DNA of 64,000 nucleotides from Acidimicrobiales bacterium (lineage in GTDB: Bacteria; Actinomycetota; Acidimicrobiia; Acidimicrobiales; Bin134): contig OZ220474.1 of NCBI GenBank assembly GCA_965115985.1, positions 2,974,707 through 3,038,706 of the forward strand, read 5' to 3'. A model generated the notes under the pieces. The model was not told the DNA's origin. It searched no databases and saw only the letters and a program-made list of their open reading frames with translations. The position numbers were made by a program, and so were the translations under genes. Position 1 is the stretch's first letter; each line of letters begins with the position of its first letter. Shown here piece by piece: positions 1 to 19,208 of the stretch.

Positions 1-182
1 AGGCCGAATCCGATGAGGTCGTGGCCGGCACCAAGGTGCTGGCCGTGCTGGAGTCCCTTCCCGGTCTGGGAAAGGTTCGGGCCCGCAGGATGATGGAGGA
101 GGTCGGTATTGCCGACAACCGCCGCGTTCGCGGGTTGGGGGATCAGCAGCGGGCCGAACTGCTCGAACGCTGCGGCGACTAG
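1..182 (+). CDS. mihF: integration host factor mIHF, 3' partial
   Basis: The frame ending at TAG 180-182 reads ...LESLPGLGKVRARRMMEEVGIADNRRVRGLGDQQRAELLERCGD, the C-terminal region of actinobacterial mIHF. It sits at the head of the conserved mihF-gmk-rpoZ-coaBC-metK order. Confidence 0.8.
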   Translation, partial: AESDEVVAGTKVLAVLESLPGLGKVRARRMMEEVGIADNRRVRGLGDQQRAELLERCGD

Positions 183-202
183 ATCAGCCGCTGATAATCG
201 TC

Positions 203-754
203 TTGTCCGGCCCCGGCGGGGTCGGTAAGGGAACTCTCGCGGCTGCTCTGGTGGCGGCCGACCCCAAATTGTGGCTCAGCCGATCGTGGACCACCCGACC
301 TCGTCGCCCGGGGGAGGCCGAGACCGCTTACGTGTTCGCCGACGAGGCTGCTTTTGAGCGAACGGTGGCCGAGGGCGGCTTCGTGGAGTGGGCCGAGGTC
401 GCCGGCAACCTGTACGGCACCCCATGGCCCGATCCGCCCGAGGACAGCGATGTTCTGCTGGAGATAGACGTTCAGGGCGCGATCCAGGTCCGGGCCCGCC
501 ATCCCGACGCCCTGTGCATCTTCGTGGAGGCCCCGTCGGTCGCGGAGCAGGAGTCCCGCCTGCGGGGTCGGGGCGATTCCGAGGCCCACATTGCCCGAAG
601 GCTGGCCATGTCCGATGCCGAGCGGTCCCTGGCTCGCGATCTCGATGCCGTCCTGGTGGTCAACGACCGCTTCGACGAGGCGGTGGCCGAGATCGCCTCG
701 ATTATCGATGAGGCCCGCCGGGGACGGGGGGACGACCCGAGGACCGCAGGATGA
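203..754 (+). CDS. gmk: guanylate kinase
   Basis: 183-aa ORF with P-loop SGPGGVGKGT and the guanylate kinase core (SRSWTTRPRRPGE, FVEWAEVAGNLYGTP). The start is uncertain: TTG 203, or an upstream CTG near 191 that would give LIIVLSGPGG. Confidence 0.9.
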   Translation: MSGPGGVGKGTLAAALVAADPKLWLSRSWTTRPRRPGEAETAYVFADEAAFERTVAEGGFVEWAEVAGNLYGTPWPDPPEDSDVLLEIDVQGAIQVRARHPDALCIFVEAPSVAEQESRLRGRGDSEAHIARRLAMSDAERSLARDLDAVLVVNDRFDEAVAEIASIIDEARRGRGDDPRTAG

Positions 755-880
755 AGTCGGGAACGACGACGAATCGGAGTGATGGCTGAATAACGGATCC
801 GTCGGTCGGCCTTGTTATCATCTACCTGCTCTCCCGGTACCGCCAGGAGGAGGGCTGCTCATCGGAAGAAGGCCGTACAG

Positions 881-1252
881 ATGACCGAACAGCACGACAC
901 CATGATGTATCCGACCATCGAGGAGCTTCTGGGACGTACCGGTTCCAAGTTTCGCCTGGTCACCCTGGGGGCGCTGCGGGCCTGCCAGATCAACTCGTAC
1001 TTCGGCCAGCTCGGCGACGGCCTGGGAGCCATGGTTCCACCCCAGGTGATGACCACGTCCCGCAAGCCCTTGTCCATCGCCTTCGAGGAGGTCGCGGCCG
1101 ACAAGATCGTCGCGGCCGATCCGGTGGAGGCGTCGGAGCCGGAAGAGGCAATCCTGCCCGGTGCCATGATTCCCACCGGTGAGGCCGTTCTCGGCGGCGA
1201 TGCTTCCGACACCGCCGATGAGGACGGATCCGGCCTCGACCCTGCATCCTGA
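881..1252 (+). CDS. rpoZ: DNA-directed RNA polymerase subunit omega
   Basis: From the internal ATG at 881 the ORF 812-1252 reads MTEQHDTMMYPTIEELLGRTGSKFRLVTLGALRACQI, a typical omega N-terminus. It has an acidic C-terminal tail and lies between gmk and coaBC. Confidence 0.85.
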   Translation: MTEQHDTMMYPTIEELLGRTGSKFRLVTLGALRACQINSYFGQLGDGLGAMVPPQVMTTSRKPLSIAFEEVAADKIVAADPVEASEPEEAILPGAMIPTGEAVLGGDASDTADEDGSGLDPAS

Positions 1253-1260
1253 CCGAAGCC

Positions 1261-2580
1261 ATGTCCGCGGTTGCCGGCAAGCGCATCGTGCTCGGTGTGA
1301 GCGGGGGCATCGCGGCTTACAAGGCGATAGAGATCTGCCGGCTGCTGATGGACGGCGGGGCCCACGTGATTCCGGTGCTGACCAGGGGAGCCACCCGGTT
1401 CGTGGGCCGGACCACGTTCGACGCCCTGGCCTCCGAGCCGGCCCGCACCAGCCTGTTCGACGAGGACGATCCCATTCCCCACACCACCCTGGGGCAAACC
1501 GCGGACTGCATGGTGGTGGCTCCCGCCACGGCCAGGGTGATCGGTGCCCACGCCGCCGGCATCAGCTCCGATCTGTTGACCGCCACTCTTTTGGCCACCC
1601 GGGCTCCGGTGGTGATCTGCCCGGCCATGCACGCCGAGATGTGGGAGCACCCGGCGGTGGTCGCCAACGTGGCCACGCTGGTGGAGCGGGGCGTCCACAT
1701 CGTCGGACCGGAATCGGGCCTGCTGGCCGGTGGCGACGAGGGGGTCGGGCGCCTGAGTTCCCCGGAGGAGGTCGTGGCCGCGGTTGGTCGAGTTCTGTCT
1801 CGGGCCGAGGGCCCGGGCCCCGGGGCTCGCGATCGTGATGCCGAGGGCCCGGGCCCCGGGGCTCGCGATCGTGATGCCGAGGGCCCGGGCCCCGGAGCCC
1901 GCGATCGCGATATGGCCGGACTGTCGGTGGTGGTGACCGCCGGTGGCACCCGGGAACCCATTGATCCGATCCGCTACATCGGGAACCGGTCCTCGGGCAA
2001 GCAGGGTCATGCCTTCGCCGACGAGGCCGCCGGTCGGGGAGCCGAGGTGACCATCGTCACCACCGTGGCCCGTCCCGGGCCTCCGGGCGCGACCGTGGTC
2101 GTGGTGGACACCGCCGCGGAGATGGCCGCCGCCACCGCCGGGGCCGCCGCCGATGCCGACGTGGTGATAATGGCGGCCGCGGTGGCCGATTTTCGCCCGG
2201 TCGATCCGGCCGGCGTGAAGCTCAAAAAGCGCGATGGAATGCCGACCATCGAGCTGGAACCCACTCCCGACATCCTGGCCTCGCTGGGGGCGTCGAAGCC
2301 GGAGGGACAGATTCTGGTGGGTTTCGCGGCCGAGACCTGCGACCTGGCCGCCAATGCCGTCGCGAAACTCAGCGGCAAGGGGGCCGACTACATCGTGGCC
2401 AACGACGTGACCGCCGAGAACGCCGGTTTCGCCGGTGACACCAACGAAGTCCTGGTGCTGGCCTCCGACGGTCGCAGGCACCCGGTAGGTTTGCGCTCCA
2501 AGCGGGAGGTGGCCCGAGCCGTCCTCGACCTGGTGGTGGCCGACCGGAGTGGCCGGGGCGGATCCAATACTGGTAGCTAG
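1261..2580 (+). CDS. coaBC: bifunctional phosphopantothenoylcysteine decarboxylase / phosphopantothenate-cysteine ligase
   Basis: 439 aa. The N-terminal flavoprotein domain reads [23 protein letters not shown]. The C-terminal CoaB domain reads [27 protein letters not shown] and ANDV. Confidence 0.93.
1804..1911 (+). repeat. 36-bp x3 in-frame tandem repeat inside coaBC, encoding ([12 protein letters not shown])x3
   Basis: Copies at 1804-1839 and 1840-1875 are identical. The third copy (1876-1911) has 3 substitutions. The array falls in the CoaC-CoaB interdomain linker. Confidence 0.95.
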
Positions 2581-2588
2581 GAGATTCA

Positions 2589-3767
2589 ATGAGCCGAGGT
2601 TCCGACAGCCGGTACCGTTTCACGTCCGAATCGGTGACCGGCGGCCATCCCGACAAGATCGCCGATCAGATCTCCGACGGGGTGCTGGATGCCCTGATGG
2701 AGGCGGACCCCACCAGCCGGGTGGCGTGCGAGACCCTGGTCACCACCGGTTTGGTGGTGGTGGCCGGGGAGATCACCACCGAGGCCTACATCGACATCTC
2801 CCGGGTGGTGCGCGACACCATCACCGGGATCGGCTACGACCGGGAGGACTTCGGTTTCGACGGCAACACCTGCGGGGTCATGCTGTCCATCGACGACCAG
2901 TCCCCCGACATCGCCCAGGGGGTGGACCGGCCCGACCCGGGAGAGCAGGGGGCCGGCGACCAGGGCATGATGTTCGGCTTCGCCTGTGACGAGACCCCGG
3001 AGCTGATGCCCCTTCCCATCCACGTCGCCCACCGGATGGTGGAACGCCTCACCGAGGTTCGCCGCTCGGGGTCGGTGCCCTACCTGCGGCCCGACGGCAA
3101 GAGCCAGGTGACGTTCGAGTACGAGGGAAACCGGCCGGTGGCCCTCGGCACCGTGGTGATGTCGGCCCACCACCGCGACGGGATCACCATGGAGGAGATG
3201 AGGGACGACCTGAGGGAGCAGGTGGTCGATCCGGCGGTGCCCGAGCGGTTCCGGGGGGACGGCTACGAGGTTCTGATCAATCCCACCGGCAAGTTCGTCA
3301 GGGGCGGGCCGGTGGCCGATGCCGGGCTCACCGGGCGCAAGATCATCGTGGACACCTACGGGGGCATGGCCCGTCACGGCGGGGGGGCCTTCTCGGGCAA
3401 GGACCCCAGCAAGGTGGATCGCTCCGGGGCCTACGCCGCCCGCTGGGTGGCCAAGAACGTGGTGGCCTCGGGGGCGGCCACCCGGTGCGAGGTTCAGGTG
3501 TCCTACGCCATAGGCGTCGCCGACCCGGTGTCGGTGATGGTGGAGACCTTCGGGACCGAGACGGTGGATCCGGCCAGGATCGGCCACCAGGTACACGAGA
3601 TCTTCGACCTTCGACCCGCGGCCATCATCCGGGACCTGGATCTGCTGCGGCCCATCTACCGGCCGACCGCGGCCTACGGCCACTTCGGGCGCAGCCCCGA
3701 GAGCACGTTCACCTGGGAACGCACCAACCGGGTGGACGATCTCCGCGCCGCGTTGGGGTTGTCCTAA
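2589..3767 (+). CDS. metK: S-adenosylmethionine synthetase
   Basis: 392 aa with canonical MetK motifs: [48 protein letters not shown]. Confidence 0.97.
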
Positions 3768-3782
3768 CCGCTCACCGGAAAA

Positions 3783-5495
3783 TTGCATGTCCGGGTCCTG
3801 CCCGATGTCGTCGCCATAGATCGCGAGTTCACCTACACGGTTCCCGAGGGCTGGGACGACGACCCCCGCTTCGGGGTGGGATCCATGGTCCGGGTGATGC
3901 TGGGCGGTCGCCGGACGGGGGGGTGGATCACCGCGGTGGACGTGGAACCGCCCGAGGGGGTGGAGCCGGTGCCGCTGGCCCGGTTGAGCGGGTTGGGGCC
4001 CGACGGGGGGTTGATCGATCTGAGCGGGTGGGCGGCTTGGCGCTGGGCCGGCCGTCGGGCCCACTTCCTGCGCACCGCCTCGCCCTCCCGCATGGTGGCT
4101 GCCCGTCCCCGCCCTCGGCGCTCCCGGTTGGTGGCCTCCGACGACCATGCCGACCTGTTCGCCGGCGAGGGTTGTGTTCTGCGGTCGGGGCCCTCGACCG
4201 ATCTTCTGCCCATCGCCGTGGCCGCGGCGGCTCGGGGCCAGGCGTTGATCCTGGTGCCCGACCACGAGCGGGCCGATCACCTGGTGCGGGGTCTGCGTCG
4301 GGCCGGGGCGTGGGCCGTGCGCCACCCCGAGGGTTGGGCCTCGGCCTCGGCCGGGGCCACCGTGGTGGGTACCTTGTCGGCGGCGTGGGCTCCCGCTCCC
4401 GAGTTGGCCGCGGTGCTGGTGGTCGACGAGCACGACGAGTCGTACCGCTCGGAGTCCGCCCCCACCTGGAGCGGCCGGGACGTGGCCCTGGAGCGGGCCC
4501 GCCGGGCCGGTGCTCCCTGCGTCATGTTGTCGCCGGTGCCCAGCCTGGAGGCGCTCCGGTCCCGCCGTCTGCTGCGGCCGGCTCGGGGCGTCGAGCGCGA
4601 CGGTTGGCCGCGGGTGGAGGTGGTGGATCGTCGCGGCGAGGATCCGGTGCGGGCCGGTCTCTATTCCCCGACGTTGGTTCGGGCGCTGCGGGAGGGCACC
4701 CGGGTGGCGTGCGTGTTGAACCGGCTGGGACGTTCGGTGCTGCTGGCCTGCCGGGTGTGCGGCGAGCTGGCGGTATGCACCGAATGCCGGTCGTCCATGC
4801 GTCAGACCGACGACGGGCGGTTGCGGTGCCGGACGGGGGATCACACTCGCCCCCAGATTTGTGCCGACTGCGGCAGCACCGGGATGCGTAACCTTCGGGC
4901 CGGGGTGAACCGGGTCCGTGAGGAGGTGGAGGCGCTGGTGCGCTCCCCGGTGGCGGAGGTCACCGGTAGGGGCTACGACGGCGCGCCCACTGCTCGGGTG
5001 GTGGTGGGCACCGAGGCGGTTCTGCATCTGGGCCGCCCGTTCGACCTGGTGGCTTTTTTAGAGTTCGACCAGGAGCTGCTGGCCCCCCGGTTCCGGGCTC
5101 GGGAGCAGGCGCTGGCCCTCATGGCCCGGGCGGCCCGGGTGACCGGCCCCCGTGCCACCGGCGGGCGCATCCTGGCGCAGACCCGGCTCCCCGACGACCC
5201 CGTGGTGGTGGCCGCGTTCCGAGCCGATCCGGCGATCCTGGCCCGTTACGAGCGGGACCACCGCCAGGAACTCCGTCTGCCTCCCTACGGGGCCATGGCC
5301 GTGGTGTCCGGCCCGGCCGCCGGGGAGTACATGGAGCGCCTCGGCAACCCACCGGGCCTCCGCACGGCCCCCGGCCCGGACGACCGTTTCTTTCTGCGAG
5401 CCCCCGACCACGACGTCCTGTGCGACGCCCTGGCCTCGGTGGAGCGCCCTTCCGGCCGTCTCCGCATCGATGTGGATCCCGTCAGGGCCATCTAG
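3783..5495 (+). CDS. priA: primosomal protein N' (PriA), actinobacterial type
   Basis: 570 aa with a TTG start. It has the Cys-rich zinc-binding insert CRVCGELAVCTECRSSMRQ...CADCGS and keeps the conserved position after metK. Confidence 0.8.
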   Translation: MHVRVLPDVVAIDREFTYTVPEGWDDDPRFGVGSMVRVMLGGRRTGGWITAVDVEPPEGVEPVPLARLSGLGPDGGLIDLSGWAAWRWAGRRAHFLRTASPSRMVAARPRPRRSRLVASDDHADLFAGEGCVLRSGPSTDLLPIAVAAAARGQALILVPDHERADHLVRGLRRAGAWAVRHPEGWASASAGATVVGTLSAAWAPAPELAAVLVVDEHDESYRSESAPTWSGRDVALERARRAGAPCVMLSPVPSLEALRSRRLLRPARGVERDGWPRVEVVDRRGEDPVRAGLYSPTLVRALREGTRVACVLNRLGRSVLLACRVCGELAVCTECRSSMRQTDDGRLRCRTGDHTRPQICADCGSTGMRNLRAGVNRVREEVEALVRSPVAEVTGRGYDGAPTARVVVGTEAVLHLGRPFDLVAFLEFDQELLAPRFRAREQALALMARAARVTGPRATGGRILAQTRLPDDPVVVAAFRADPAILARYERDHRQELRLPPYGAMAVVSGPAAGEYMERLGNPPGLRTAPGPDDRFFLRAPDHDVLCDALASVERPSGRLRIDVDPVRAI

Positions 5496-5567
5496 CTGGT
5501 CGGTACCGTCCCGCTCGGAGTCGGTGCGGATGTCGGCATCGATGTGGATCCGGTCAGGACCATCTAG
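5464..5567 (+). repeat. Direct repeat of the priA 3' end including its TAG (period 72 bp, 2 copies of a 32-bp core)
   Basis: gcatcgatgtggatcccgtcagggccatctag at 5464-5495 recurs as gcatcgatgtggatccggtcaggaccatctag at 5536-5567. Confidence 0.9.
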
Positions 5568-5598
5568 GTATCGGGGTTGAGGGGTGTTTTGGGATGTG

Positions 5599-5630
5599 TT
5601 GTGCCCCCCGGGGGGACCCGGGGGGCACAA
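5599..5630. terminator. Bidirectional stem-loop between convergent priA and the FN3 gene
   Basis: Perfect 14-bp stem ttgtgccccccggg / cccggggggcacaa with loop ggga. It is followed on the + strand by a T/G-rich tract (ctgtttgggtttgggttttggg). Confidence 0.6.
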
Positions 5631-5658
5631 CTGTTTGGGTTTGGGTTTTGGGATCTTG

Positions 5659-8600
5659 TTATGGGCCGCAGACGTCGGCGGCTAGGTCTGCGGGGGTGTC
5701 GCCGTAGTTGGTTCCTTTGAGGCGGCGGCATTCCTCGGTGAGTGCGGTTTTGAACTCGTCGTGGTGGATGGCGGCGAGGGCGTCGCCTGCTTTTTGGCGG
5801 GCTATGGCTTCGCGGCGGGTGTAGGGCAGCGAGCAGACGTCGGCCACTCCGTCGCGGTCCGAGTCGAGGGGGTAGGTGGTGGGCCCGCCCAGGGAGCGGT
5901 TGGTGCAGTAGCCGGGGCCGGTGATGGTGCCCGAGTAGTAGGGGCCGCCGTCGTTGATGGGCGCGTATCCCGGAGCGGCCAGCGTGTCGCCGCCGCAGGC
6001 CTGGTCGCCGTCGGGTTCGGCGGCGCAGGCGGCGTTGACCAGTGCTCGGTATTGGTCGGGGTAACGGTTGGCCAGGGTGATTACCGCGTTTTGGCGGGCT
6101 ATGGCTTCGCGGCGGGTATAGGGCAGCGAGCAGGTGTCGGCCACGCCGTTGCCGTCGCCGTCGAGGGCGAACAGGCGGGCTCCGCCCAGGGATCGGTCGG
6201 TGCAGAAGTCGGGGCCGTCGACCACGCCTGAGTAGTAGTCGTCGTTCACCGGTGGGGCCGAAGTGGGTGTCACCGGGTCGGAGGTGGTGACCGCGCCGTC
6301 GCCGATGGCGTTGGTGGCTCTGACCTCGAATGTGTAGGCCACTGCGCCGGTGCCGGTGTCCAAACCGGTCAGGCTCGCCCCTTCTGCGTCGGCGGCCATC
6401 ATGGTCCACTCGCCGTAGTCGCCGACCCCAACTCGCATGCGGTAGTGCCAGCCGGTGATTTGTGAGCCGCCGTCGCCGGTCGAGGCCCATGACAGGGTGA
6501 TTTCCCCGTCGCCGCCGGTAACGGTCACCGTCGGCGCCGACGGTACCGTCGCCGGGGTGGCCGATTCGGTGGTTACCGCGCCGTCGCCCATGGCGTTGGT
6601 GGCTCGTACTCCGAAGGTGTAGGCGGTTCCGTTGGTCAAGTCGGAAACGACATGGCTAGTGGCATCGGCGGCGAGGTCGGCCCATTCGCCGTCGCCGGTT
6701 CGCACGTGCCATCCGGTGATCGCCGAACCGTTGTCGCCGTTGGAGGTCCACGACAACATCACCATCATGTCGCCGGCCTCGGCGGTCAGCGTCGGCGCCG
6801 GGGGTGTTCCTGCGGGGGTGGCCGACGCGGTGGCGGCCTCGCCGGCACCGACCGCGTTCACCGCCCGCACTCCGAAGGTGTATGCGGTTCCGTTGTCCAG
6901 GTTGGATATCGACACGGTGTTGGTCGCGGAGGTGGTCAGATCGGCCCATTCGCCGTCACCGGTTCGAGACTGCCAGCCGGTGATGACCGAACCGCCATCA
7001 CCGTTGGGGGTCCACGACAGAGTGACCGCCATATCACCGGCTTCGGCGGTCAGCGTCGGCGCGGGAGGCACCACCGCGGGCGTGGCCGAATCAGACCCGG
7101 CTTCGCTGGCTCCCATGGGGTTTATCGCCCGCACCTCGAACGTGTAGGGAACACCGTTGGTCAGATCGGTGATGGTGTGGCCGGTGGTGGTGGCGTCGCT
7201 GTCGGCGATGTCGGTCCACGTCGCGAAGGCGCCGTCGCCGGTTCTCGTGCGGTATTGCCAGCTCGTGGTGGGCGACGCCCAGGTGGGCTCGCCGGGTGTA
7301 CCGGGGGTGCCCGCGGTCCATGTCAGTATTACTTGGCGGTCGCCGCGAGAAGCGGTCACCTGGGCCGGTTGGGGCGGTGTGGTGGACGGGGTGACGGTGT
7401 TTGACTCGAACTCGAATCCTTTGACCTGCTGGTTGTTGGTCACTGCTCGTACTGCGAATCGGTAGCCGATCCCGTTGGACAAACCGGTCACGGTATGAGA
7501 GGTGGTGGCGGGGCCGCTGTTTTCTATGTCGGTCCATGCTGCGTAGCCGCCGTCGTCTTGGCGTTGGCGGTATTGCCAGGCGGTGATGGTGCTGCCGGCG
7601 GAGGCGGCTCCGGCCCATGACAGCATGACCTGGGTGTCGCCGGCTCGGGCGTTGAGTGTTCCTGCGGTGGGGGCGCCGATGGGTATCACCGCGGAGGTCT
7701 CCAGGTGGGGGCCTGGCCCGTAGGTGTTCACTGCTCGTACTTGGAAGGTGTAGCTGACGCCGTTTTCCAGGTTGCGTATCACCGCACCGGTTTCTGCCGA
7801 GGGGCGGTCCGTTTTGAAGTTCGCGGTCTTCGGTATCGTGGTGCCCAGAGTTTCCCAGGCCTCCCAGGGTTCGCCGACGCGTTTTTTGCGAACCTGGTAT
7901 CCGGTCACTCGGTCGCCGCGAACGGTCGCCGATTCGTCCGAAAGCGCAAGCAGCGATGGTTTGGTGACCCTGAACGTGACCTGGGCGTCGCCGGCCTCCA
8001 CCAGTGCTCGTACCGGTGGGTTGGGTACTCGGCCCGGGGTGACGGGCAACGTCTGGGCGGCGGCTCCGGCGCCGATGGCGTTTATCGCTCTGATCCTGTA
8101 GGTGTAGGCGGTGCCGTTGGTCAACCCCGACACGATCGCGGAGGCGGCGGCGGGGTTGCGGCCGGGCACGTCGGTCCAGTCGTCCGCGGCGTCGCAGTCG
8201 GTGGAGAAGTCGCAGTACTGCCACTTGGTGATCGCCGGGCCACCGCTGCCGGCCGACGTCCAGGTGAGGGTCACCTGTCGGTCGCCGCCGGTCGCGGTCA
8301 ACCCCTCGGGGGCCGGAGGAGGGACTCCGGGGGTGACTGGTTTGGATTCCATGGTTATGCCGGGCAACGAGCCCAGTACGGCGCGGATTCTGAATTGGTG
8401 GGCCACGCCGTTGCCGAGGCCGTCGATTTCGAGTTCTTGGCTGTTGTTGAACTGCAAGCCGTTGTTGACGAACGTCCACTCTCCCCAGTCGCCGTCGGCG
8501 ATCTTGTAGGAGTACTCCCAACCGATGGTGCCGCCGAGGTTTTCCATCTGGCTCCTGGTCGAGATCGCGGAGTTGGCCGCGGCGGTGTCCCTGAGGCTCA

Positions 8601-10854
8601 GGATCGCTTTGCTGGTCCCCGCCTTGGCATGAAGAACCGGAAGAACGAAGGTGCCGGCGCCGGTGGAGCCGCCGGCCGAGCCGAGCATCGCGCCGCCGCC
8701 GGGCAGGGGTGGCCCGCCGTAGACGAACGCGGGACCCTCGGTGGCCAGACTGGGACCGTTGTCGTTGTAGTGGCGCACTCTCACTTGGTAGGTCTCGCCT
8801 ATTTTGAAATCGGTGATTGTCGTGCGTTGGTCCAAGGTGCTGGCCACGGTCCACGGACCCCAGGGACCGTCCCCAACCTTCCAGGAAACCTCGTCCCCAA
8901 CCTTGCCTGGTCCACTTCCTCTGAAAACTCGAGGTTTGCCGCCGTTGCTGGGAGAGTCCACATAATAAGCTATGGTCACCCATTTAGGTGCCCCCGGTGG
9001 CCGCTCGTCGCCATGGCCTTTTACTTTGACGACCGCGGACGAGAAACCTTTGCCGAAACTGTTTTCCGCTCGCAAAACCAGGTAACGATCGGAAATATAA
9101 CCTAAAGTAATGCCATCGGGGGCTTGCCCGTTCGCCAGGATGCGGGGCAAAGTGATAGTGTTCAACCCGGCGCACTCCTGTGGGTCGGTGATGTCCACCT
9201 GGTCGTCGCTCGCGTCCTGCGTGCTGTCGCACAACGGAATCCATTTGGTCTCGGCCGCCAAATCCTCCACGGAACCGTCATGCTTGTACTCCCAGGCGGT
9301 GATCGGAGAACCACCATCGCTGCCAGGGGTCCACGACAAAGTAATCCTCGCCGACCCATTGCGCGCTATCCAGTCGGCCTCCCCGGAGAAGTCCAACGGG
9401 GCCGCAGGCACCGTACCCGGGTAAAGATCCTTGGGGGTCTCCACATAGGGGCCGGGGCCGATACGGTTCACCGCCCGAATCCTGAACCGGTAGGGTGTGC
9501 CCGCAGCCAAACCGGGGACCTTGTACGCCCTGGACCCTGTCTTATCCACCTTGGCCAACTCGGTTAAAATTTCTCCGGCTGTCCCGTTGGTTAGGAATGT
9601 TTGGTCGGCGGGGATGGTCATCCACTGGCCCCACTCGCCATCACCGGTCTTTTGCTGGTACTCGTAACGAATCAAAGGGGAATCCCCATCGTTCATGCGC
9701 GTAACACCTCGAGGTTCTGCCCACTTCAAGGTGATCGAGTCCTCTCCCGGATCCTGCCGGAACCAAGTGGTGTCCCCAGCGGGCGCACCGGTGGGTACGG
9801 CACCGGGAACGCTGCCGGGATCGACAACGGGGGTCACGGAGGACTCGGTGCCCGCACCGTTGATGTTCACCGCCCGAACCTGGAAGCGGTAATTCTTGGT
9901 GTTGTCCAAACCGGTCACCACATAAGAAGTGGTGCCCGCGCCGCTGCCGGGGATCCTGGTCCATGGTGTGTCGGAGGGAATCCTCCCTCGGTACTCCCAT
10001 CCGGTGATCGGCGAACCCCCGTCGCTGCTCGCCACCCACGACAAGGTGACCGACTTGTCTCCCGGTGTGGTTCTGAGGTTCTGGGGGCGGCCCGGTTTGC
10101 CCGAGGCCACCACCGGTCCCACCTCGGCGGCGGGACCCGCACCGTTGGCGTTCACGGCTCGAAGCCTGAACCGATAGGTCACCCCGTTGGTCAAACCCGT
10201 GACCTCGAAATCACCGGAATACTGGTCGGAGCCGGGAACGATGTTCCAGGAGGTCCAATCCCCATCACCGGTCTTCTGCTGATACTCGTAGCGCACCGGG
10301 TCAGTCCACCCGGTCTCCACGCTGTCGAACTGGGGCAACGTCCAGTTCAGGGTGATCTTCGAATCATCTGGAGTGGCTCTCAACCCGCCGGGAGCCTGCG
10401 GCAAGCCAGTGATAGTGACCCGTTCGATCCTGGTCGCCAGGTTGCTGTCGCCCTTTTGGCCCGCGGCGTTCACCGCGCGGAGCTTGAAAGTGTAGGAGTA
10501 ACCATTGCGCAGGCCGGTGACGGTGTAGGAAGTGGTGGAGCCGGTGCTTCCCGGGATCGGGTACCACACTCCCTTGTCGGTTTGGGTGGATCCAAAAGGG
10601 CCTACCAAATAGGTGTACTCGTATCCCACGATCGGACTGCCACCGTTGTCGGTCGGGGCACTCCACGTCAATGTCGCCTGCCTGAAACCGGCCACCGCAA
10701 CCGGCTTACTCCTATCACCACCACTGGGCCCCAGAACTATCGACGGCCCCACCTGCTGCTGCGCACCAACACTACCAACCGGCACCAAAACCGCAGCCAA
10801 CAACACCCCGACAGCGGCCCACCCACCAACAGATCGCCCGGTGGAACCGCCCAT
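5659..10854 (-). CDS. Giant secreted protein: signal peptide, about 14 fibronectin type III domains, duplicated Cys-rich DxDxDG-containing C-terminal module
   Basis: The ORF runs 5659-10965. The ATG at 10854 is preceded by AGGA at 5-nt spacing and gives a signal peptide MGGSTGRSVGGWAAVGVLLAAVLVPVGSVGA/QQ. There are about 14 units with the FN3 signature (xTLxW...GGSPITGWEY...TGLxNGxxYxFxVRAVNxxG). The C-terminus carries two roughly 95-aa repeats with LDGDGNGVADTCSLPYTRREAIARQ and LDSDRDGVADVCSLPYTRREAIARQ. Alternative starts are 10917 (ATG) and 10965 (TTG). Confidence 0.85.
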   Translation of the reverse strand: MGGSTGRSVGGWAAVGVLLAAVLVPVGSVGAQQQVGPSIVLGPSGGDRSKPVAVAGFRQATLTWSAPTDNGGSPIVGYEYTYLVGPFGSTQTDKGVWYPIPGSTGSTTSYTVTGLRNGYSYTFKLRAVNAAGQKGDSNLATRIERVTITGLPQAPGGLRATPDDSKITLNWTLPQFDSVETGWTDPVRYEYQQKTGDGDWTSWNIVPGSDQYSGDFEVTGLTNGVTYRFRLRAVNANGAGPAAEVGPVVASGKPGRPQNLRTTPGDKSVTLSWVASSDGGSPITGWEYRGRIPSDTPWTRIPGSGAGTTSYVVTGLDNTKNYRFQVRAVNINGAGTESSVTPVVDPGSVPGAVPTGAPAGDTTWFRQDPGEDSITLKWAEPRGVTRMNDGDSPLIRYEYQQKTGDGEWGQWMTIPADQTFLTNGTAGEILTELAKVDKTGSRAYKVPGLAAGTPYRFRIRAVNRIGPGPYVETPKDLYPGTVPAAPLDFSGEADWIARNGSARITLSWTPGSDGGSPITAWEYKHDGSVEDLAAETKWIPLCDSTQDASDDQVDITDPQECAGLNTITLPRILANGQAPDGITLGYISDRYLVLRAENSFGKGFSSAVVKVKGHGDERPPGAPKWVTIAYYVDSPSNGGKPRVFRGSGPGKVGDEVSWKVGDGPWGPWTVASTLDQRTTITDFKIGETYQVRVRHYNDNGPSLATEGPAFVYGGPPLPGGGAMLGSAGGSTGAGTFVLPVLHAKAGTSKAILSLRDTAAANSAISTRSQMENLGGTIGWEYSYKIADGDWGEWTFVNNGLQFNNSQELEIDGLGNGVAHQFRIRAVLGSLPGITMESKPVTPGVPPPAPEGLTATGGDRQVTLTWTSAGSGGPAITKWQYCDFSTDCDAADDWTDVPGRNPAAASAIVSGLTNGTAYTYRIRAINAIGAGAAAQTLPVTPGRVPNPPVRALVEAGDAQVTFRVTKPSLLALSDESATVRGDRVTGYQVRKKRVGEPWEAWETLGTTIPKTANFKTDRPSAETGAVIRNLENGVSYTFQVRAVNTYGPGPHLETSAVIPIGAPTAGTLNARAGDTQVMLSWAGAASAGSTITAWQYRQRQDDGGYAAWTDIENSGPATTSHTVTGLSNGIGYRFAVRAVTNNQQVKGFEFESNTVTPSTTPPQPAQVTASRGDRQVILTWTAGTPGTPGEPTWASPTTSWQYRTRTGDGAFATWTDIADSDATTTGHTITDLTNGVPYTFEVRAINPMGASEAGSDSATPAVVPPAPTLTAEAGDMAVTLSWTPNGDGGSVITGWQSRTGDGEWADLTTSATNTVSISNLDNGTAYTFGVRAVNAVGAGEAATASATPAGTPPAPTLTAEAGDMMVMLSWTSNGDNGSAITGWHVRTGDGEWADLAADATSHVVSDLTNGTAYTFGVRATNAMGDGAVTTESATPATVPSAPTVTVTGGDGEITLSWASTGDGGSQITGWHYRMRVGVGDYGEWTMMAADAEGASLTGLDTGTGAVAYTFEVRATNAIGDGAVTTSDPVTPTSAPPVNDDYYSGVVDGPDFCTDRSLGGARLFALDGDGNGVADTCSLPYTRREAIARQNAVITLANRYPDQYRALVNAACAAEPDGDQACGGDTLAAPGYAPINDGGPYYSGTITGPGYCTNRSLGGPTTYPLDSDRDGVADVCSLPYTRREAIARQKAGDALAAIHHDEFKTALTEECRRLKGTNYGDTPADLAADVCGP

Positions 10855-10931
10855 CGAAGTCCTAGCAACCCGCCGGACACGGCCGACGGCACGGCCCCAA
10901 AACCTGGATTCAATCATAGGGGCGAGTATCG

Positions 10932-10948
10932 CCCCCCCCCCCCCCCCC
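10932..10948 (-). repeat. Homopolymer G17 (C17 on + strand) upstream of, or at the extreme 5' end of, the FN3 gene
   Basis: Counted directly: 17 consecutive C at 10932-10948. This is 78-94 nt upstream of the preferred ATG 10854, or codons 7-11 (GGGGG) if TTG 10965 were used. Confidence 0.9.
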
Positions 10949-11090
10949 GTCAAGTCTCTGGGCAAAAAGTTCTAGGGTTTAGAGTGTTGCCCCCGGCGGG
11001 CCCGGAGGCGACAAAGGTCCAGATACCCGAGCCAAGAAACGCTTCAGGAAGTGGAGTCGCCCCGGGAGGGCTGGAAGCCCACCCGGCTGG

Positions 11091-11723
11091 CTAACGTACC
11101 TCCAGGATTCGGTAGCCCCGGCGGGATCCGAGCCGGGTGGTGGGGTGGCCCTGCTCCTCCAGCCATCGGGCCAGCGAGTCCGAGCCCAGGTTCTTGTTGA
11201 CCACTAGGTAGGCCCGCCCTCCGTCGTCCAGCCTTCCCAGCCAGGTGGTCAGCATCCGGTGGAGGGCGACCTTGCCGATACGGATGGGAGGGTTGGAGTA
11301 GATGGCGGCGAAGCGAACATCGGGAGGAACCTCGTCGGGCAGGCATGCGGTGGCGGTTCCACCGGCGTGGCGATCCAGGTTGGCCCGGCACAACTCCAGC
11401 GCTCGAGGGTTGACGTCCACGGCCCACAGCGGTACCTGGGGGGCCCACCGGCTCAGTGCCACCGCGATCGGCCCGTACCCGCAGCCCAGATCCAGCAGCG
11501 GTCCGGTTCGGGGTGGGCGAGGGCCCTCGGCCAGCAAGTACCGGGTTCCCCAGTCCACCTCGTCGGCCGCGAACACTCCCCGGTCGGTAGCCAGCTCGAC
11601 GTCCAGATCACCCACCCGCAACTCGACCGTCCCCGCCCGCCGCCCGCTCTCCGGCCCGGTGCTGAAGTAGTGGGAGTTGCTCACACCTCGACGGTACCCC
11701 GTCCGGCGGTCCTGCCCGCCCAT
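11091..11723 (-). CDS. Class I SAM-dependent methyltransferase, small-domain (RsmC/RsmD-like) type
   Basis: LLDLGCGYGPIAVALS (motif I) and IYSNPPIRIGK (NPPxR catalytic motif). The start is uncertain (ATG 11723 or GTG 11684). Confidence 0.8.
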   Translation of the reverse strand: MGGQDRRTGYRRGVSNSHYFSTGPESGRRAGTVELRVGDLDVELATDRGVFAADEVDWGTRYLLAEGPRPPRTGPLLDLGCGYGPIAVALSRWAPQVPLWAVDVNPRALELCRANLDRHAGGTATACLPDEVPPDVRFAAIYSNPPIRIGKVALHRMLTTWLGRLDDGGRAYLVVNKNLGSDSLARWLEEQGHPTTRLGSRRGYRILEVR

Positions 11724-11830
11724 CCGGCTCGGAGGCCTGCTGGGTGGTTCCGCCCGCCCATCCGGCTCGGAGGCTCCGTCCGGTGGTCCCGTCCGCTCAT
11801 CCGGCTCGGCTGCTTGGGTGCGGGCCTTCC
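11714..11830. repeat. 38-39 bp x3 tandem repeat at the methyltransferase 5' end / def upstream region
   Basis: gcccgcccatccggctcggaggc occurs at 11714 and 11752. A degenerate third copy (gtccgctcatccggctcggctgc) lies at 11791. Confidence 0.85.
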
Positions 11831-11854
11831 ATCGGTTGGCGGTAACCTGCGGCC

Positions 11855-12379
11855 ATGGCTCCGCTGCGGATACGAGTGTACGGCGACCCGGTGCTGCGGC
11901 GGGTGGCGGCGGACGTCACCGACATCGACGGGGCGATGGCCGATCTGTGCGGTCAAATGTTCACCGCCATGTACGAGGCCCCGGGCATCGGTCTGGCCGC
12001 GCCCCAGGTGGGGGTGTCCCAGCGGTTCTTCGTGTACGACATGGGTGAGGGGCCCGAGGTTCTGGTCAATCCCGAGATCGCCGACCGTGACGGCGAATGG
12101 GTCTACAACGAGGGCTGCCTGTCGGTGCCCGAACTGTCGTGGGAGATCGTCCGGCCCCGCCGCATCCACCTGAGGGCCCACGATCTGGACGGCAACGAGG
12201 TGTCCATCGAGGCCGAGGACCTCCAGGCCCGTCTCTTCCAGCACGAACTCGACCACCTCGATGGCAGGATCCTGCTCGACTATCTGGACGAGGATCAGCG
12301 TCGGGAGGCCAAGCGCATCCTGCGGCACCGGACGATGGGCGACCGCAGCCGTCCCCCTGGCCGCGGATTGTCGTTGTAG
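11855..12379 (+). CDS. def: peptide deformylase
   Basis: 174 aa with the three Def motifs: GIGLAAPQVG, EGCLSVP, QHELDHLDG. Confidence 0.95.
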   Translation: MAPLRIRVYGDPVLRRVAADVTDIDGAMADLCGQMFTAMYEAPGIGLAAPQVGVSQRFFVYDMGEGPEVLVNPEIADRDGEWVYNEGCLSVPELSWEIVRPRRIHLRAHDLDGNEVSIEAEDLQARLFQHELDHLDGRILLDYLDEDQRREAKRILRHRTMGDRSRPPGRGLSL

Positions 12380-13260
12380 TGATCGACCCGCCGGTCGAGG
12401 TCCACCGGCTCGTATACCTCGGCACCCCGGTGGAATCGGTGCCGTTCCTGGAAGCGCTGGTCGAGGCCGGTTTCGACGTGGTCCTGGTGGTCACCCGGCC
12501 CGACAAGCGCCGGGGACGGCGGACTGCTCCCACCCCCAGCCCGGTGAAGGCCGCCGCCCGGAGGTTGGGGGTTCCCACCACTTCCGAGGTGGACGACGTG
12601 CTCGACGTCGATGCCGACCTCGGCGTGGTGGTGGCCTTCGGGCGGATCATCAAACCCCATGTGCTCGACCGGTTGGCCATGGTCAACGTCCACTTTTCGC
12701 TACTGCCCCGTTGGCGGGGCGCGGCCCCGGTGGAGCGGGCCATCCTGGCCGGTGACCGGGTGACCGGGGTGGGCCTGATGGAGGTGGACGAGGGACTCGA
12801 CACCGGCCGGGTGTATCGCCAGGTCGAAGTGCCCGTGGCCCCCGATGCCACCGCGGCGTCGCTGCGGGCCGACATGGTGGAAGCCGCCGTTCCCATGCTG
12901 ATCGGGGCCCTCCAGGATGGCCTGGGCAGGCCCGAGCCCCAGCGGGGGGAGCCGGTGTACGCGGCCAGGATCACCCGTGACGAGCTTCGCCTCGACTGGG
13001 AGCAGCCGGCAGCGTTTTTGTGCCGGCAGGTCCGGGTCGGTGGGGCGTGGACGACCTGGCGAGGGAAAACCCTGAAAATCTGGTCGGCCCTCTCGGTCGG
13101 GGGGTCGCAACCGGTCGGCCGGATCGACGGCGATCTGGTCGGCACCGGCGAGGGACGGTTGCGGCTGCTGGAGGTTCAGGCCGAGGGCGGCCGCCGCCAG
13201 GCCGCCGGGGACTGGTACCGGGGGGCCCGCCCGACCCCCGACGACCGCCTCGGGCCGTGA
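12379..13260 (+). CDS. fmt: methionyl-tRNA formyltransferase
   Basis: Within ORF 12097-13260 the homology begins at VYLGTPVESVPFLEALVEAG. It continues with HFSLLPRWRGAAPVERAILAGD. The proposed GTG 12379 overlaps the def TAG by 1 nt. Confidence 0.85.
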   Translation: MIDPPVEVHRLVYLGTPVESVPFLEALVEAGFDVVLVVTRPDKRRGRRTAPTPSPVKAAARRLGVPTTSEVDDVLDVDADLGVVVAFGRIIKPHVLDRLAMVNVHFSLLPRWRGAAPVERAILAGDRVTGVGLMEVDEGLDTGRVYRQVEVPVAPDATAASLRADMVEAAVPMLIGALQDGLGRPEPQRGEPVYAARITRDELRLDWEQPAAFLCRQVRVGGAWTTWRGKTLKIWSALSVGGSQPVGRIDGDLVGTGEGRLRLLEVQAEGGRRQAAGDWYRGARPTPDDRLGP

Positions 13261-13400
13261 ACCCCGCCGGCGGAGGGCGAAACGCTCGGGCCGTGAACCC
13301 TACCGGCGGAGAGCGAAACGCTCGGGCCGTGAATCCTGCCGGCGGGGAGCGAAACGCTCGGGCCGTGAATCCTGCCGGCGGGGAGCGAAACGCTCGGGCC
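13249..13400 (+). repeat. 36-bp x4.2 tandem repeat of the fmt-stop / rsmB-start GTGA junction
   Basis: ctcgggccGTGAa recurs with TGA at 13258, 13294, 13330 and 13366 (period exactly 36). A fifth partial copy reads GTTG instead of GTGA. Confidence 0.95.
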
Positions 13401-14756
13401 GTTGCCGCCTCGCTTTTGAACCGAATCGAGGGCGATGGGGCCTACGCCAACCTGGTGCTGGCCTCGGCCGACCTGCCCGAGCGTGACGCGCCTTTCATCA
13501 CCGAGCTGGTCTACGGGGTTACCCGCATGCGCCGGGCCCTGGATTACCTGATCGACGGTTTCGTGGCCGACCCTCCCGACCTCGGCACCCGCAACCTGCT
13601 GCGGATCGGGGCCTACCAGCTCCACATGATGGCCACCCCGGCGTATGCCGCGGTGAGCGAGACCGTCCAAGCCTGCCCTCGTCGCCGCCGGGGATTCGTC
13701 AACGCCGTCCTGCGCCGGGTGGCCGAGATGGACCCGGTATGGCCTTCAGATGCGGTCCGATTGAGCTACCCGGATTGGATGTTGGAGCAACTGGAGGGCG
13801 ACCTCGGACCGGCTGATGCCCACGCCGCGCTGGAGCGGATGAACCAGCCGACCGCGGTCGCCACCCGATCCGACGGCTATGTCCAGGATCGGGCGTCGCA
13901 GTGGGTGGCCGAGCTGGTCGATCCCCAGCCGGGGAATCTGGTTCTGGACATGTGCGCCGGTCCGGGAGGAAAGGCCACGGCCATGGCCGGGAGATCGGTG
14001 ATTTCGGAGAGCCCAGCCGAAGCCGGGAGATCGGCAACGGCAAAGAGCCCAGCCGAAGCCGGGAGATCGGCAACGGCAAAGAGCCCAGCCGAAGCCGGGA
14101 GATCGGCAACGGCAAAGAGCCCAGCCGAAGCCGGGAGATCGGCAACGGCGGAGAGCCCAGCCGGAGCCGGGAGATCGGCAACGGCGGAGAGCCCAGGAAC
14201 GGCCAAAAGTCCGCCCATCGTGGTGGCTGCCGATCACCGCCGTCATCGAGCATTGCTGGTGGCGAACAACTCCATCCGCTCCGGTGTCCCCCTGGCCGGT
14301 GTGGTGGTCGCCGACGGCCGTCAACCGCCGTTTCGCTCCGGTTCTTTCGACCGGGTGCTGGTGGATGCCCCCTGCTCTGGTCTGGGGGTGCTGGGGCGTC
14401 GGGCCGATGCCCGCTGGCGGGTGGGTCCCGACGACGTGGAGGAGCTGGCCCGTCTCCAGTCCGAGTTGGTTCGGACCGCATTTCGTTTGGTCCGTCCCGC
14501 GGGAGTGGTGGTGTACAGCGTCTGCACCATGACCGTGGCCGAGACGGTGGCCATCGACGACATGGTGGCCCGGGAGCACCCGGATGCCGTGCCGGTGGTC
14601 ATCGACGACATGGTGGCTCGGGAGCACCCGGACACCGTGCCGGTGACCATCGACGACACCCGCTGGCGGCCCTGGGGCCGTGGAGCCCTCGTCCTCCCCC
14701 AGGACCACGACACCGACGGGATGTTCGTCGCCATCTACATGACTCCCGCAGGCTGA
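13257..14756 (+). CDS. rsmB: 16S rRNA (cytosine967-C5)-methyltransferase RsmB/Sun
   Basis: NusB-like N-domain (ARAVAASLLNRIEGDGAYANLVL), SAM motif DMCAGPGGKA, and catalytic region DRVLVDAPCSGLGVLGRRADARWR. The start can be any of four in-frame GTGs (13257, 13293, 13329, 13365). Confidence 0.85.
   Translation: MNPAGGGRNARAVNPTGGERNARAVNPAGGERNARAVNPAGGERNARAVAASLLNRIEGDGAYANLVLASADLPERDAPFITELVYGVTRMRRALDYLIDGFVADPPDLGTRNLLRIGAYQLHMMATPAYAAVSETVQACPRRRRGFVNAVLRRVAEMDPVWPSDAVRLSYPDWMLEQLEGDLGPADAHAALERMNQPTAVATRSDGYVQDRASQWVAELVDPQPGNLVLDMCAGPGGKATAMAGRSVISESPAEAGRSATAKSPAEAGRSATAKSPAEAGRSATAKSPAEAGRSATAESPAGAGRSATAESPGTAKSPPIVVAADHRRHRALLVANNSIRSGVPLAGVVVADGRQPPFRSGSFDRVLVDAPCSGLGVLGRRADARWRVGPDDVEELARLQSELVRTAFRLVRPAGVVVYSVCTMTVAETVAIDDMVAREHPDAVPVVIDDMVAREHPDTVPVTIDDTRWRPWGRGALVLPQDHDTDGMFVAIYMTPAG
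13986..14207 (+). repeat. 36-bp x~6 in-frame tandem repeat inside rsmB, encoding (SPAEAGRSATAK)n
   Basis: Units begin at 14009, 14045, 14081, 14117 and 14153, with partial copies at both edges. The array sits immediately after the GPGGKATAMAG SAM-binding motif. Confidence 0.93.
14553..14660 (+). repeat. 48-bp x2.2 in-frame tandem repeat near the rsmB C-terminus, encoding IDDMVAREHPD(A/T)VPV(V/T)
   Basis: atcgacgacatggtggc occurs at 14553 and 14601, with a partial copy at 14649. Confidence 0.92.
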
Positions 14757-14855
14757 TTGTCCTTGCATCGGTCGGGTGGGTGGGCCGGTACCCCGGTTGT
14801 CGAGTCGGCCGGCCCACTCGCCCCCCAGCCGGTCGGGTGGGTAATCTGGGCGGCG

Positions 14856-15344
14856 ATGACGGATCGGGACACCGCCGGATTGGTGGCCAGAGTCCTAACG
14901 GTGTCCGACGGGGTGATCGCCGGTACCCGAAAGGACGAATCGGGTGATGCTCTGGTGGAGCTGCTGGTTCGCGAGGGATACCGGGTGGACGATCGCCGAG
15001 CGATCGAGGACGGGGTCGAGTCGGTGCGTGATGCCCTGGTGGACCTGTCCAGCGGCTTCGCCGGGCTCGTCGTCACCACCGGAGGGACCGGTTTCGGGCC
15101 TCGGGATCTGACTCCCGAAGGCACTGCCGCGGTGGTGGAGCGGCGGGCCGACGGCCTGGCCGAGGCCACTCGGTTGGTGACCCCGTTCGGTCGTCTGTCC
15201 CGAGCCATCGCCGGCACCAGGGGCACCGCGCTGATCGTGAACCTCCCCGGATCACCGAAGGGGGCGGTGGAGTGTCTGGAAGCGGTGCTCGACGTCATCC
15301 CCCACGCACTGCGCCTGCTGGCCGACCAACCGACCGAGCATTGA
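14856..15344 (+). CDS. mog: Molybdenum cofactor biosynthesis protein MogA/MoaB family
   Basis: VLTVSDGV...GDALVELL...VVTTGGTGFGPRD.TPE...PGSPKGAVECL, the MoaB/Mog fold signature. The ATG at 14856 lies inside ORF 14757-15344. Confidence 0.85.
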   Translation: MTDRDTAGLVARVLTVSDGVIAGTRKDESGDALVELLVREGYRVDDRRAIEDGVESVRDALVDLSSGFAGLVVTTGGTGFGPRDLTPEGTAAVVERRADGLAEATRLVTPFGRLSRAIAGTRGTALIVNLPGSPKGAVECLEAVLDVIPHALRLLADQPTEH

Positions 15345-15345
15345 C

Positions 15346-15490
15346 GTCGCCCCCCGGTGGTGAGGAAGGGGGCCGGGGCTGATGGGGCGGCGGGGTGCCT
15401 CCCGGCCCGAGTCGCCCCCCGGTGGTGAGGAAGGGGGCCGGGGCTGATGGGGCGGCGGGATATCTCCCGGCCCGAATCGCCCCCCGGAGA
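15346..15490 (+). repeat. 65-bp x2.2 tandem repeat between mog and ribD, including the ribD start region
   Basis: gtcgccccccggtggtgaggaagggggccggggctgatggggcggcggg occurs at 15346 and 15411, with a partial third copy from about 15476. The ATGs at 15382 and 15447 are 65 nt apart and so in different frames. Confidence 0.92.
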
Positions 15491-16496
15491 TCAACGGGGC
15501 CGGGACGACCGGATGATGGATCTGGCGCTGGAGGCGGCTCGCTCCTGTCGGCTCGTCACCTCGCCCAATCCGTGGGTGGGAGCGGTGGTGGACGCCGGCG
15601 GGAAGCAGTTCACCGGGGCCACCTCGCCGCCGGGCGGCAACCATGCGGAGATCAACGCTCTCGGAGCCGCGGGGCCGAGAGCCGAGGGGGCCGATCTCTA
15701 CACCACCCTGGAACCTTGCGATCACCGAAGTCGCACCGGACCCTGCACCGAGGCCATCATCGCCGCGGGGGTTGCTCGGGTGGTGGTGGCGGTCGAGGAT
15801 CCCGACCCGGCGGTCCGGGGGCGGGGCATCTCCGCCCTGCAAAGAGCGGGTATTACCGTAAAGATGGGGGTGCGAGCCACCGATGCCGCCGAGCTGCTCG
15901 CCCCCTACCTCAAGCACCGTCGTACCGGACTTCCCTGGGTGGTGCTGAAGCTGGCCGCATCGCTGGACGGCCGCATCGCTGCTCCCGACACCACCAGCCG
16001 CTGGATCACCGGACCGCAGGCCCGGGCCGACAGCCACCGGTTGCGGGCCGAGAGCGATGCCGTGCTGGTGGGGGCGGGTACCGTGAGAGCCGACGATCCG
16101 GCACTCACCGTGCGTCGCTGGCAACCACCCCCGGGCGTGACCCCCGGCATCGACCAGCCCCTCAGGGTGGTTCTGGGCGTCGCTCCCCCCGGTGCCCGTG
16201 TTCACCCGGCATTGGAGATGGACGGCCCGCTCGAACAGGTGCTTCGGGAGCTGGGGGAGCGGGGCGTGATCCAACTCCTGGTGGAGGGGGGCGCGACCAC
16301 CGCCGCCTCCTTCCACCGAGCCGGCTTGGTGGATCACTACGCCGTCTACCTGGCTCCCGCCCTGTTCGGGGGCGACGACGGCCTTCCCCTGTTCTCCGGT
16401 CCGGGGGTGGCCACCATCTCCGATCTGTGGCGGGGAGAGATCGCCGATGTGTGCCGACTGGGCCCCGACCTGCGCATCGATCTCCGTCCTGGCTGA
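15447..16496 (+). CDS. ribD: Bifunctional riboflavin biosynthesis deaminase/reductase RibD
   Basis: Deaminase zinc motifs HAEINAL and PCDHRSRTGPC. Reductase domain LKLAASLDGRIA...SR.ITG. The start may instead be the MMDLALEAA methionine at 15513. Confidence 0.9.
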   Translation: MGRRDISRPESPPGDQRGRDDRMMDLALEAARSCRLVTSPNPWVGAVVDAGGKQFTGATSPPGGNHAEINALGAAGPRAEGADLYTTLEPCDHRSRTGPCTEAIIAAGVARVVVAVEDPDPAVRGRGISALQRAGITVKMGVRATDAAELLAPYLKHRRTGLPWVVLKLAASLDGRIAAPDTTSRWITGPQARADSHRLRAESDAVLVGAGTVRADDPALTVRRWQPPPGVTPGIDQPLRVVLGVAPPGARVHPALEMDGPLEQVLRELGERGVIQLLVEGGATTAASFHRAGLVDHYAVYLAPALFGGDDGLPLFSGPGVATISDLWRGEIADVCRLGPDLRIDLRPG

Positions 16497-16665: not shown

Positions 16666-16696
16666 CCCTGAACCGTTGATTCGGTAGCGTGGGGGC

Positions 16697-18982: not shown

Positions 18983-18983
18983 A

Positions 18984-19178: not shown

Positions 19179-19208
19179 TCACGGATTCGAGTCCAGGGAG
19201 AAGACACG

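Follow-up and report, generated by a model that had tools for sequence, protein, structure and literature searches.

The 64-kb stretch of contig OZ220474.1 that we analysed (64,000 nucleotides from an Acidimicrobiales bacterium; hereafter the window) encodes a secreted protein that consists of 14 FN3 units and ends in two copies of a cysteine-rich module. This module is an undescribed and very narrowly distributed family of predicted extracellular domains. The FN3 gene lies in an apparent insertion between priA and a methyltransferase gene. The module family is what we take to be new here, and a poly-G tract in a candidate promoter of the same gene is an unexpected addition to it.

A duplicated cysteine-rich module at the C-terminus

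The two module copies, of about 97 amino acids (aa) each, make up the last 195 aa of the protein and are 55% identical over 71 aa (E 3e-27). Each contains four cysteines and a DxDxDG-type loop (Table 1). Over 218 distinct instances, the family motif starts as C(100%)...S-L-G-G...D(100)-x-[DN](91)-x-D(98)-G(91)-[VI]-A(96)-[DE](99)-x-C(100) and continues as -S-L-P-x-T-R-R-x-x-x-A-R-Q...C(89)...G-D...D-x-C(97), the figures in brackets being percent conservation. D or N at loop positions 1, 3 and 5, G at 6 and an acidic residue at 9 are the hallmarks of DxDxDG loops. The cysteine pattern fits two disulfides per module, one of them closing the loop as in thrombospondin type 3 (TSP3) and Excalibur domains, and thus fits an extracellular, Ca2+-stabilized fold; the loop itself is predicted to bind Ca2+.

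At thresholds of E <= 0.1 for Pfam and E <= 0.01 for NCBIfam, the C-terminal 213 aa matched no family, and hidden Markov models of dockerin type I, TSP type-3, Excalibur and EF-hand gave no profile match to the module. Nor did sequence and profile searches of the PDB yield any significant match, or Foldseek any fold match for the module model in PDB or BFVD. The initial annotation had called this C-terminus an unassigned, cysteine-rich and DxDxDG-bearing module, and so it stays: the loop is strongly conserved, and the Pfam and Foldseek checks of the C-terminus disclosed no characterized family or fold. Two sets of weaker hits were rejected. A resemblance to domain III of serum albumin (PDB 3v09_A / 4f5v_A; ADICTLPETERKIKKQTALVEL against the module profile A2 core ADvCSLPyTRReavARQnALetL) is non-significant at E = 1.5, receives no support from the fold search and is regarded as a coincidence; the PDB profile search gave no other hit. 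PKD_4, FG-GAP_3, Dockerin_1 and RHS proteins, in the weak tail of the profile search, match only the loop motif of about 25 residues, which is not homology.

AlphaFold2 (AF2) modelled the pair (pLDDT 75, pTM 0.71) and the single module (pLDDT 76) with medium confidence. In this model the C-terminal half of the module forms a two-helix hairpin (pLDDT >90) followed by a short helix. The N-terminal half (pLDDT 63-70) is irregular and combines the loop with a short helix and two short strands.

With 90% identity as the clustering threshold, a word-indexed search recovered 72 module clusters. When 1.84 billion representative proteins were searched exhaustively with a profile, only 141 matched, 124 of them at E <= 1e-10. 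All matches with a named source came from sponge-type Acidimicrobiia or Candidatus Poriferisocius. The host of the window belongs to the same circle. Its priA protein led to 64 loci in a collection of species-representative genomes, and the best matches, 67-81% identical, were all from metagenome-assembled genomes of sponge-associated Acidimicrobiia, many of them Candidatus Poriferisocius (Acidimicrobiales). Judged by these priA relatives, the host is a sponge-symbiont type of Acidimicrobiia related to Ca. Poriferisocius and not a classical actinobacterium.

Module carriers in related bacteria

The module is nearly always paired. Among 76 carrier proteins of at least 450 aa, which were screened by hydropathy, the pair was C-terminal in 48, directly followed the signal peptide in 21 and was internal in 7, and none of the 76 had a C-terminal hydrophobic segment of the transmembrane (TM) or anchor-like kind. 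When 41 carriers were scanned for passenger domains, fn3 was found in 17 and K319L-like PKD in 16; others carried Ig_Rha78A_N, Sde0182_C, REJ, He_PIG, LRR, Big_9, Calx-beta, RCC1 or CAP. Enzymes were represented as well, by two SpoIID clusters and by Peptidase_S8 with Glug. A Peripla_BP_6 solute-binding protein without lipobox has the module pair between its signal peptide and its binding domain, and the Ser/Thr kinase P0168 (kinase 73-287, TM 427-454) exposes the pair outside the cell (553-787). At least 10 unrelated passenger types are thus represented, and the module is the sole non-repeat element that the screened carriers share.

Most small members of the family, about 250 aa long, consist of a signal peptide and two modules, often with a Pro-rich tail. 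In P0011, P0015, P0021, P0082, P0098, P0099, P0121 and others the extreme C-terminus reads G-x-[AP]-L-P-[TS]-x-x, with no TM segment after it. This tail, which was not found in the FN3 subfamily of the window, may serve as a signal for processing, glycosylation or recognition. On sponge-metagenome contigs (L065, 1-15344; L066; L068, 1-8750), genes for FN3 plus module and PKD plus module proteins form tandem arrays of 3-4 paralogues; on L068 a stand-alone two-module gene comes after the last array gene. Frameshifts interrupt several of the array genes; the contigs concerned have 1-3x long-read coverage.

Proposed surface retention and competing roles

The most economical role for the module would be surface retention or docking. 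In a monoderm cell, proteases, SpoIID and above all a solute-binding protein have to be kept at the envelope; the only non-repeat element common to the carriers screened is the module, and they lack any C-terminal anchor-like segment; and the module occurs at either protein end, as SLH, CWB2, LysM and dockerin modules do. Taken together, the terminal positions, the variety of passengers and the absence of C-terminal hydrophobic segments make up the distribution of an anchoring module. Calcium-dependent anchoring or ligand binding by a novel domain had been proposed in the initial annotation; the novelty holds, and the distribution favours anchoring over ligand binding, calcium binding and anchoring both being predictions. 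Stabilized by disulfides and probably by calcium, the module pair would hold its passenger on the cell surface through non-covalent binding to a wall polymer or a receptor protein, much as SLH, CWB2, LysM or dockerin modules do, and the FN3 array would project outward to contact the sponge host or its matrix.

DxDxDG loops are present in many extracellular ligand-binding domains, and the pair might instead be a calcium-dependent tip on the FN3 stalk that takes sponge matrix or a receptor as its host ligand or senses a signal, the protein being released or signal-anchored. The extracellular part of kinase P0168, the stand-alone secreted two-module proteins of about 250 aa and the FN3, PKD and LRR partners, which are typical host-interaction repeats, all agree with such a tip. 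However, S8 proteases, SpoIID and the ABC-type solute-binding protein carry the pair without any obvious need to bind a host; since the pair occurs at either terminus, a stalk anchored by its N-terminus cannot in every case carry it at the distal end; and the signal peptide of the FN3 protein has a normal, A-x-A-like cleavage site. We consider this role unlikely.

Dockerins, too, are tandem duplicates of a calcium-type loop plus helix, and the module shares that organization, so that it might be a dockerin-like or lattice-forming protein-protein docking unit that joins the many carriers and the small two-module proteins into a surface complex instead of binding a wall polymer. A pTM of 0.71 points to packing between the two copies, and stand-alone two-module genes adjoin arrays of module-bearing PKD or FN3 genes. 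Yet no Dockerin_1 match was obtained at E <= 0.1, no cohesin-like partner was identified, and four conserved cysteines and a size of about 97 aa are unlike dockerins. On this evidence, assembly through docking is improbable, and retention at the envelope is the role that we adopt below.

Architecture and age of the FN3 protein

The array matches Pfam fn3 (PF00041) with E 2.5e-97 and 319.7 bits, in 11 individually significant stretches, and is thus a member of that family. Borders set by the conserved F/G-strand motif [VLI]R[AH]x[NLT] divide it into 14 units, with large insertions in units 5-7 and 9. Hydropathy analysis places the sole hydrophobic segment of the protein at aa 8-31. Neither an L[PA]xT[GAS] motif nor a C-terminal TM segment is present in the FN3 protein, whose C-terminus reads ...ADVCGP, so that the combination of LPXTG/LAXTG, hydrophobic segment and basic tail typical of sortase substrates is lacking. 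A signal peptide, about 14 FN3 units and a duplicated C-terminus without an anchor, as initially annotated, are all borne out by this analysis. Additional cysteine pairs within insertions (aa 542/561 in unit 5, nt ~9172-9231; aa 881/887 in unit 8, nt ~8194-8214), the first of which is shared with the homologue P0194, are probably local disulfides, unusual in bacterial FN3.

Two full-length homologues, P0081 (1791 aa, the closest, 55% identical) and P0194/P0086 (WP_419919005.1 from Ca. Poriferisocius sp., 44% identical), are collinear with the window protein across the 14 units and the module pair. Identities of 44-55% compare with about 80% for priA, and the FN3 protein therefore evolves fast. 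No homologue of it was found by tblastn in plasmids and phages, a scan of metagenome contigs for close FN3 homologues found nothing, and the 64-kb window holds no other copy of FN3 or of the module.

The similarity of neighbouring units had been read as the mark of a recent internal duplication. Units 12-14 are indeed the most alike: units 12 and 13 reach 72% identity as protein and 74% as DNA, units 13 and 14 reach 63% and units 12 and 14 reach 56%, and all remaining pairs lie at 26-54%. However, units 12, 13 and 14 each pair one-to-one with units of P0081 (70-72% identical) and with units of P0194, in proteins whose overall identity is only 44-55%. The duplication thus predates those lineages, and the claim that it is recent does not hold.

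Table 1. Positions of the FN3 gene, its predicted parts and its surroundings in the window
Feature	Position	Strand	Remarks
priA	3783..5495	+	Conserved core gene, left flank of the insertion
Imperfect copy (35 nt, 91%) of the priA 3' end (5461-5495)	5533..5567	+	Stop codon included
Perfect hairpin, terminator-like	5598..5631		15-bp stem; between convergent priA and FN3 gene
FN3-array protein, coding sequence	5659..10854	-	Stop 5659-5661, ATG 10854, 1731 aa
Module copy 2	5662..5955	-	aa 1634-1731; Cys 1650, 1674, 1709, 1729
DxDxDG-type loop, copy 2	5833..5865	-	DSDRDGVADVC, aa 1664-1674
Module copy 1	5956..6246	-	aa 1537-1633; Cys 1551, 1575, 1610, 1620
DxDxDG-type loop, copy 1	6130..6162	-	DGDGNGVADTC, aa 1565-1575
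FN3 array, 14 units	6274..10719	-	aa 46-1527
Predicted Sec-type signal peptide	10762..10854	-	aa 1-31, ...VGSVGA before QQQ; read by eye from the sequence
Alternative start ATG	10917	-	In frame; product 1752 aa
Sigma-70-like match TTGACG-17 nt-GATACT	10925..10953	-	Only one in 5400-11200
G17 homopolymer	10932..10948	-	Last -35 base and 16/17 spacer bases
MTS-family (RsmC/PrmC-like) methyltransferase	11091..11723	-	Right flank, conserved

Insertion next to priA

The genes of the window run in the order coaBC, metK, priA (+), FN3 gene, methyltransferase (-), def, fmt, rsmB (+). For comparison we used 29 close relatives that show both priA and the methyltransferase gene. The methyltransferase is directly convergent to priA in all 29. 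The gap between them is 4-23 bp in 18 relatives and 52-340 bp in 10 others, and only in L018 does it reach 1.4 kb. Neither an FN3 gene nor the module was found within 10 kb in any of them, and the homologue P0194 is encoded at another locus, between an O-methyltransferase gene and a thiD/thi operon. The FN3 gene therefore represents an insertion. The inserted DNA comprises the 5.6 kb that separate priA from the methyltransferase gene, and in the sample of genomes compared it is confined to this one.

The FN3 gene together with the upstream methyltransferase had been viewed as inserted into a conserved block, and the synteny of priA to fmt in relatives was named as the check. The position of the FN3 gene proved not to be conserved (0/29), in keeping with that view, which fails for the methyltransferase: besides its convergence with priA throughout the close relatives, it stands 3' of priA in more distant Acidimicrobiales as well (L030, L032, L034-36, L044 and L061). 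Only Acidimicrobiia at a still greater distance lack it; in these, a gap of about 0.6 kb separates priA from fmt. The methyltransferase is therefore ancestral and does not belong to the insert.

The priA-tail copy, which starts 37 nt 3' of priA, is likely a scar of the insertion event. A second priA-tail copy was found in none of 28 relatives, and it is the only repeat at the insert, both copies lying on the same side. A T/G-rich tail follows the hairpin at 5598-5631 on the + strand. Entry of the FN3 gene between the convergent 3' ends would have left the priA-tail duplicate and brought in the terminator-like hairpin. Apart from the priA-tail copy, the spacers of the window show no similarity to the spacers of about 300 bp in relatives. 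GC3 (G+C content at third codon positions) is 0.78 in the FN3 gene, against 0.83-0.92 in 4 of 6 neighbour genes and 0.79 in rsmB.

Signs of a mobile element or genomic island were sought and not seen. The FN3 gene is the only gene between priA and the methyltransferase, with no integrase-like open reading frame (ORF) beside it; there is no tRNA in 1-20000 to serve as a target and no Rfam element near the insertion; and plasmids and phages, as stated, held no homologue. A 190-aa ORF at 5058-5630 (-) overlaps the 3' part of priA in antisense, has no family match and was set aside as a probably spurious high-GC ORF.

Other inserts occupy the same junction. Eight relatives (L001, L002, L005, L010, L015, L020, L022 and L033) have an insert of about 300 bp there (~11711-12030), which appears to encode a small membrane protein; L044 has an insert of 3.1 kb (11756-14856). 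In L018 the junction holds a gene (11840-13072) for a 410-aa secreted protein that ends in LADTG, a TM segment and RRLR, a sortase-type signal, and the lineage thus appears to use signals of this type. Within this group, genes for surface proteins have thus been inserted repeatedly at the priA/methyltransferase junction.

A poly-G tract in a candidate promoter

The 236-nt spacer 5' of the FN3 gene contains a promoter-like site whose hexamers enclose a run of 17 G (Table 1). No other homopolymer in the 64-kb window reaches 9 bases, and related loci, 1.15 Mb in all, contain no run of G or C that is 10 bases long or longer. Slipped-strand phase variation classically relies on a homopolymer in the spacer of a promoter, and G17, a simple repeat inside a candidate promoter spacer, has the form of a contingency locus. 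The tract suggests that the FN3 gene may undergo slipped-strand phase variation. JGI metagenome contigs were scanned for the two flanks with 8-30 nt between them, and no length variants of the G-tract were found. We know of no report of homopolymer-spacer phase variation in Acidimicrobiia.

The position of the candidate promoter bears on the start of the protein. The reading frame stays open 5' of ATG 10854 as far as TTG 10965, and ATG 10917 may be the true start. The extension that it adds (10855-10917; MIESRFWGRAVGRVRRVARTS) would give the signal peptide a longer, Arg-rich n-region, and the resulting N-terminus (MIESRFWG...) resembles that of the homologue P0194 (MVERFGFGW...). The -10 hexamer ends 7 nt ahead of ATG 10917; together with the P0194-like start, this makes a leaderless transcript and a precursor of 1752 aa plausible. 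An AGGA lies 5 nt 5' of ATG 10854.

Runs such as G17 are error-prone, this one is unique, and the public collections searched hold no exact record of the FN3 protein, with either start, or of the methyltransferase. All this could mean that an assembly artefact, from a chimeric join or from poly-G sequencing, accounts for the apparent insertion or, failing that, for the poly-G tract. For the insertion, however, chimeric joining would have had to occur twice, precisely at the junction of priA and the methyltransferase gene, where a scar of its own (the priA-tail duplicate) and a hairpin are found and where relatives hold other small insertions. The ORF is moreover intact for 5.2 kb and collinear with its homologues across all 14 units. 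We therefore regard an artefact as very improbable.

A probable surface-protein gene, inserted next to priA

The explanation that we favour combines these elements: an inserted gene for a surface protein, with the module pair as its envelope anchor and a candidate phase-variable promoter of its own. As a whole it stands, in our judgement, about evenly between right and wrong. In it, the FN3 gene is an accessory, fast-evolving gene for a eukaryotic-like surface protein. The gene would be transcribed from its own promoter, and changes in the length of the G17 spacer may switch its expression. A more far-reaching proposal, in which the module is a calcium-dependent envelope anchor specific to sponge-symbiotic Acidimicrobiia, seems to us doubtful. 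It would tether FN3, PKD and LRR adhesins, proteases, SpoIID, a solute-binding protein and a kinase sensor, with single members such as the present one switched by a poly-G tract, and the whole would form a variable coat towards the host.

Several observations weigh against the explanation that we favour. The promoter-like site scores 9/12, and chance alone would give about 0.6 matches of this quality in the region; the length of G17 is possibly an assembly or sequencing error. Ca2+ binding, disulfides and envelope binding of the module are all predictions, and the AF2 confidence for the half that contains the loop is low. About 6-9% of the instances deviate at the second acidic position or gain a loop residue (DxPPRDG variants), and the loop geometry of these modules may be non-canonical. 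Finally, the kinase and FN3 fusions could be explained equally by a ligand-sensing or ligand-binding domain.

No sponge symbionts of this kind are in culture, and eukaryotic-like proteins with FN3, PKD or LRR repeats are the main suspects in host recognition and tolerance. A lineage-specific module common to about 140 protein clusters offers a testable handle on the surface architecture of the clade. It merits an entry as a domain family, and among its carriers are enzymes, the binding protein of a transporter and the ectodomain of a kinase. The G17 tract, if variable, would be a rare sign of phase variation in an environmental actinobacterial symbiont.

Comparison with known systems

Among domains with DxDxDG loops (TSP3, dockerin type I, FG-GAP and Excalibur), the module loop D-x-[DN]-x-D-G-[VI]-A-[DE] looks familiar. 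Two invariant cysteines bracket it, which recalls TSP3 and Excalibur, and a helix comes next, which recalls dockerin. The module differs from these families in its length of about 97 aa, its two-helix hairpin, its second cysteine pair and the lack of any hmmscan or PDB fold match. With the anchoring modules SLH, CWB2, LysM, GW and PASTA it has in common the terminal tandem copies and the use of one module on many unrelated passengers; sequence and fold are dissimilar, and the role proposed for it here derives from distribution only.

The G17 tract recalls the phase-variable promoters of Neisseria porA and opc (poly-G/C) and of Bordetella fim (poly-C), in which, likewise, a homopolymer lies between the -35- and -10-like hexamers of a surface-protein gene. 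Here, in contrast, the promoter match is weak and the organism an uncultivated actinobacterium.

Sponge-symbiotic Acidimicrobiia are reported to be enriched in eukaryotic-like proteins (ELPs), fn3 included (PMC11706023). The FN3 array of the window protein is an ordinary member of this known class of sponge-symbiont proteins: it is secreted, has many FN3 units and is encoded by a fast-evolving accessory gene, relatives of which occur in tandem arrays. To this class the window protein adds a terminal two-module domain that lies outside the described ELP classes, Pfam and NCBIfam.

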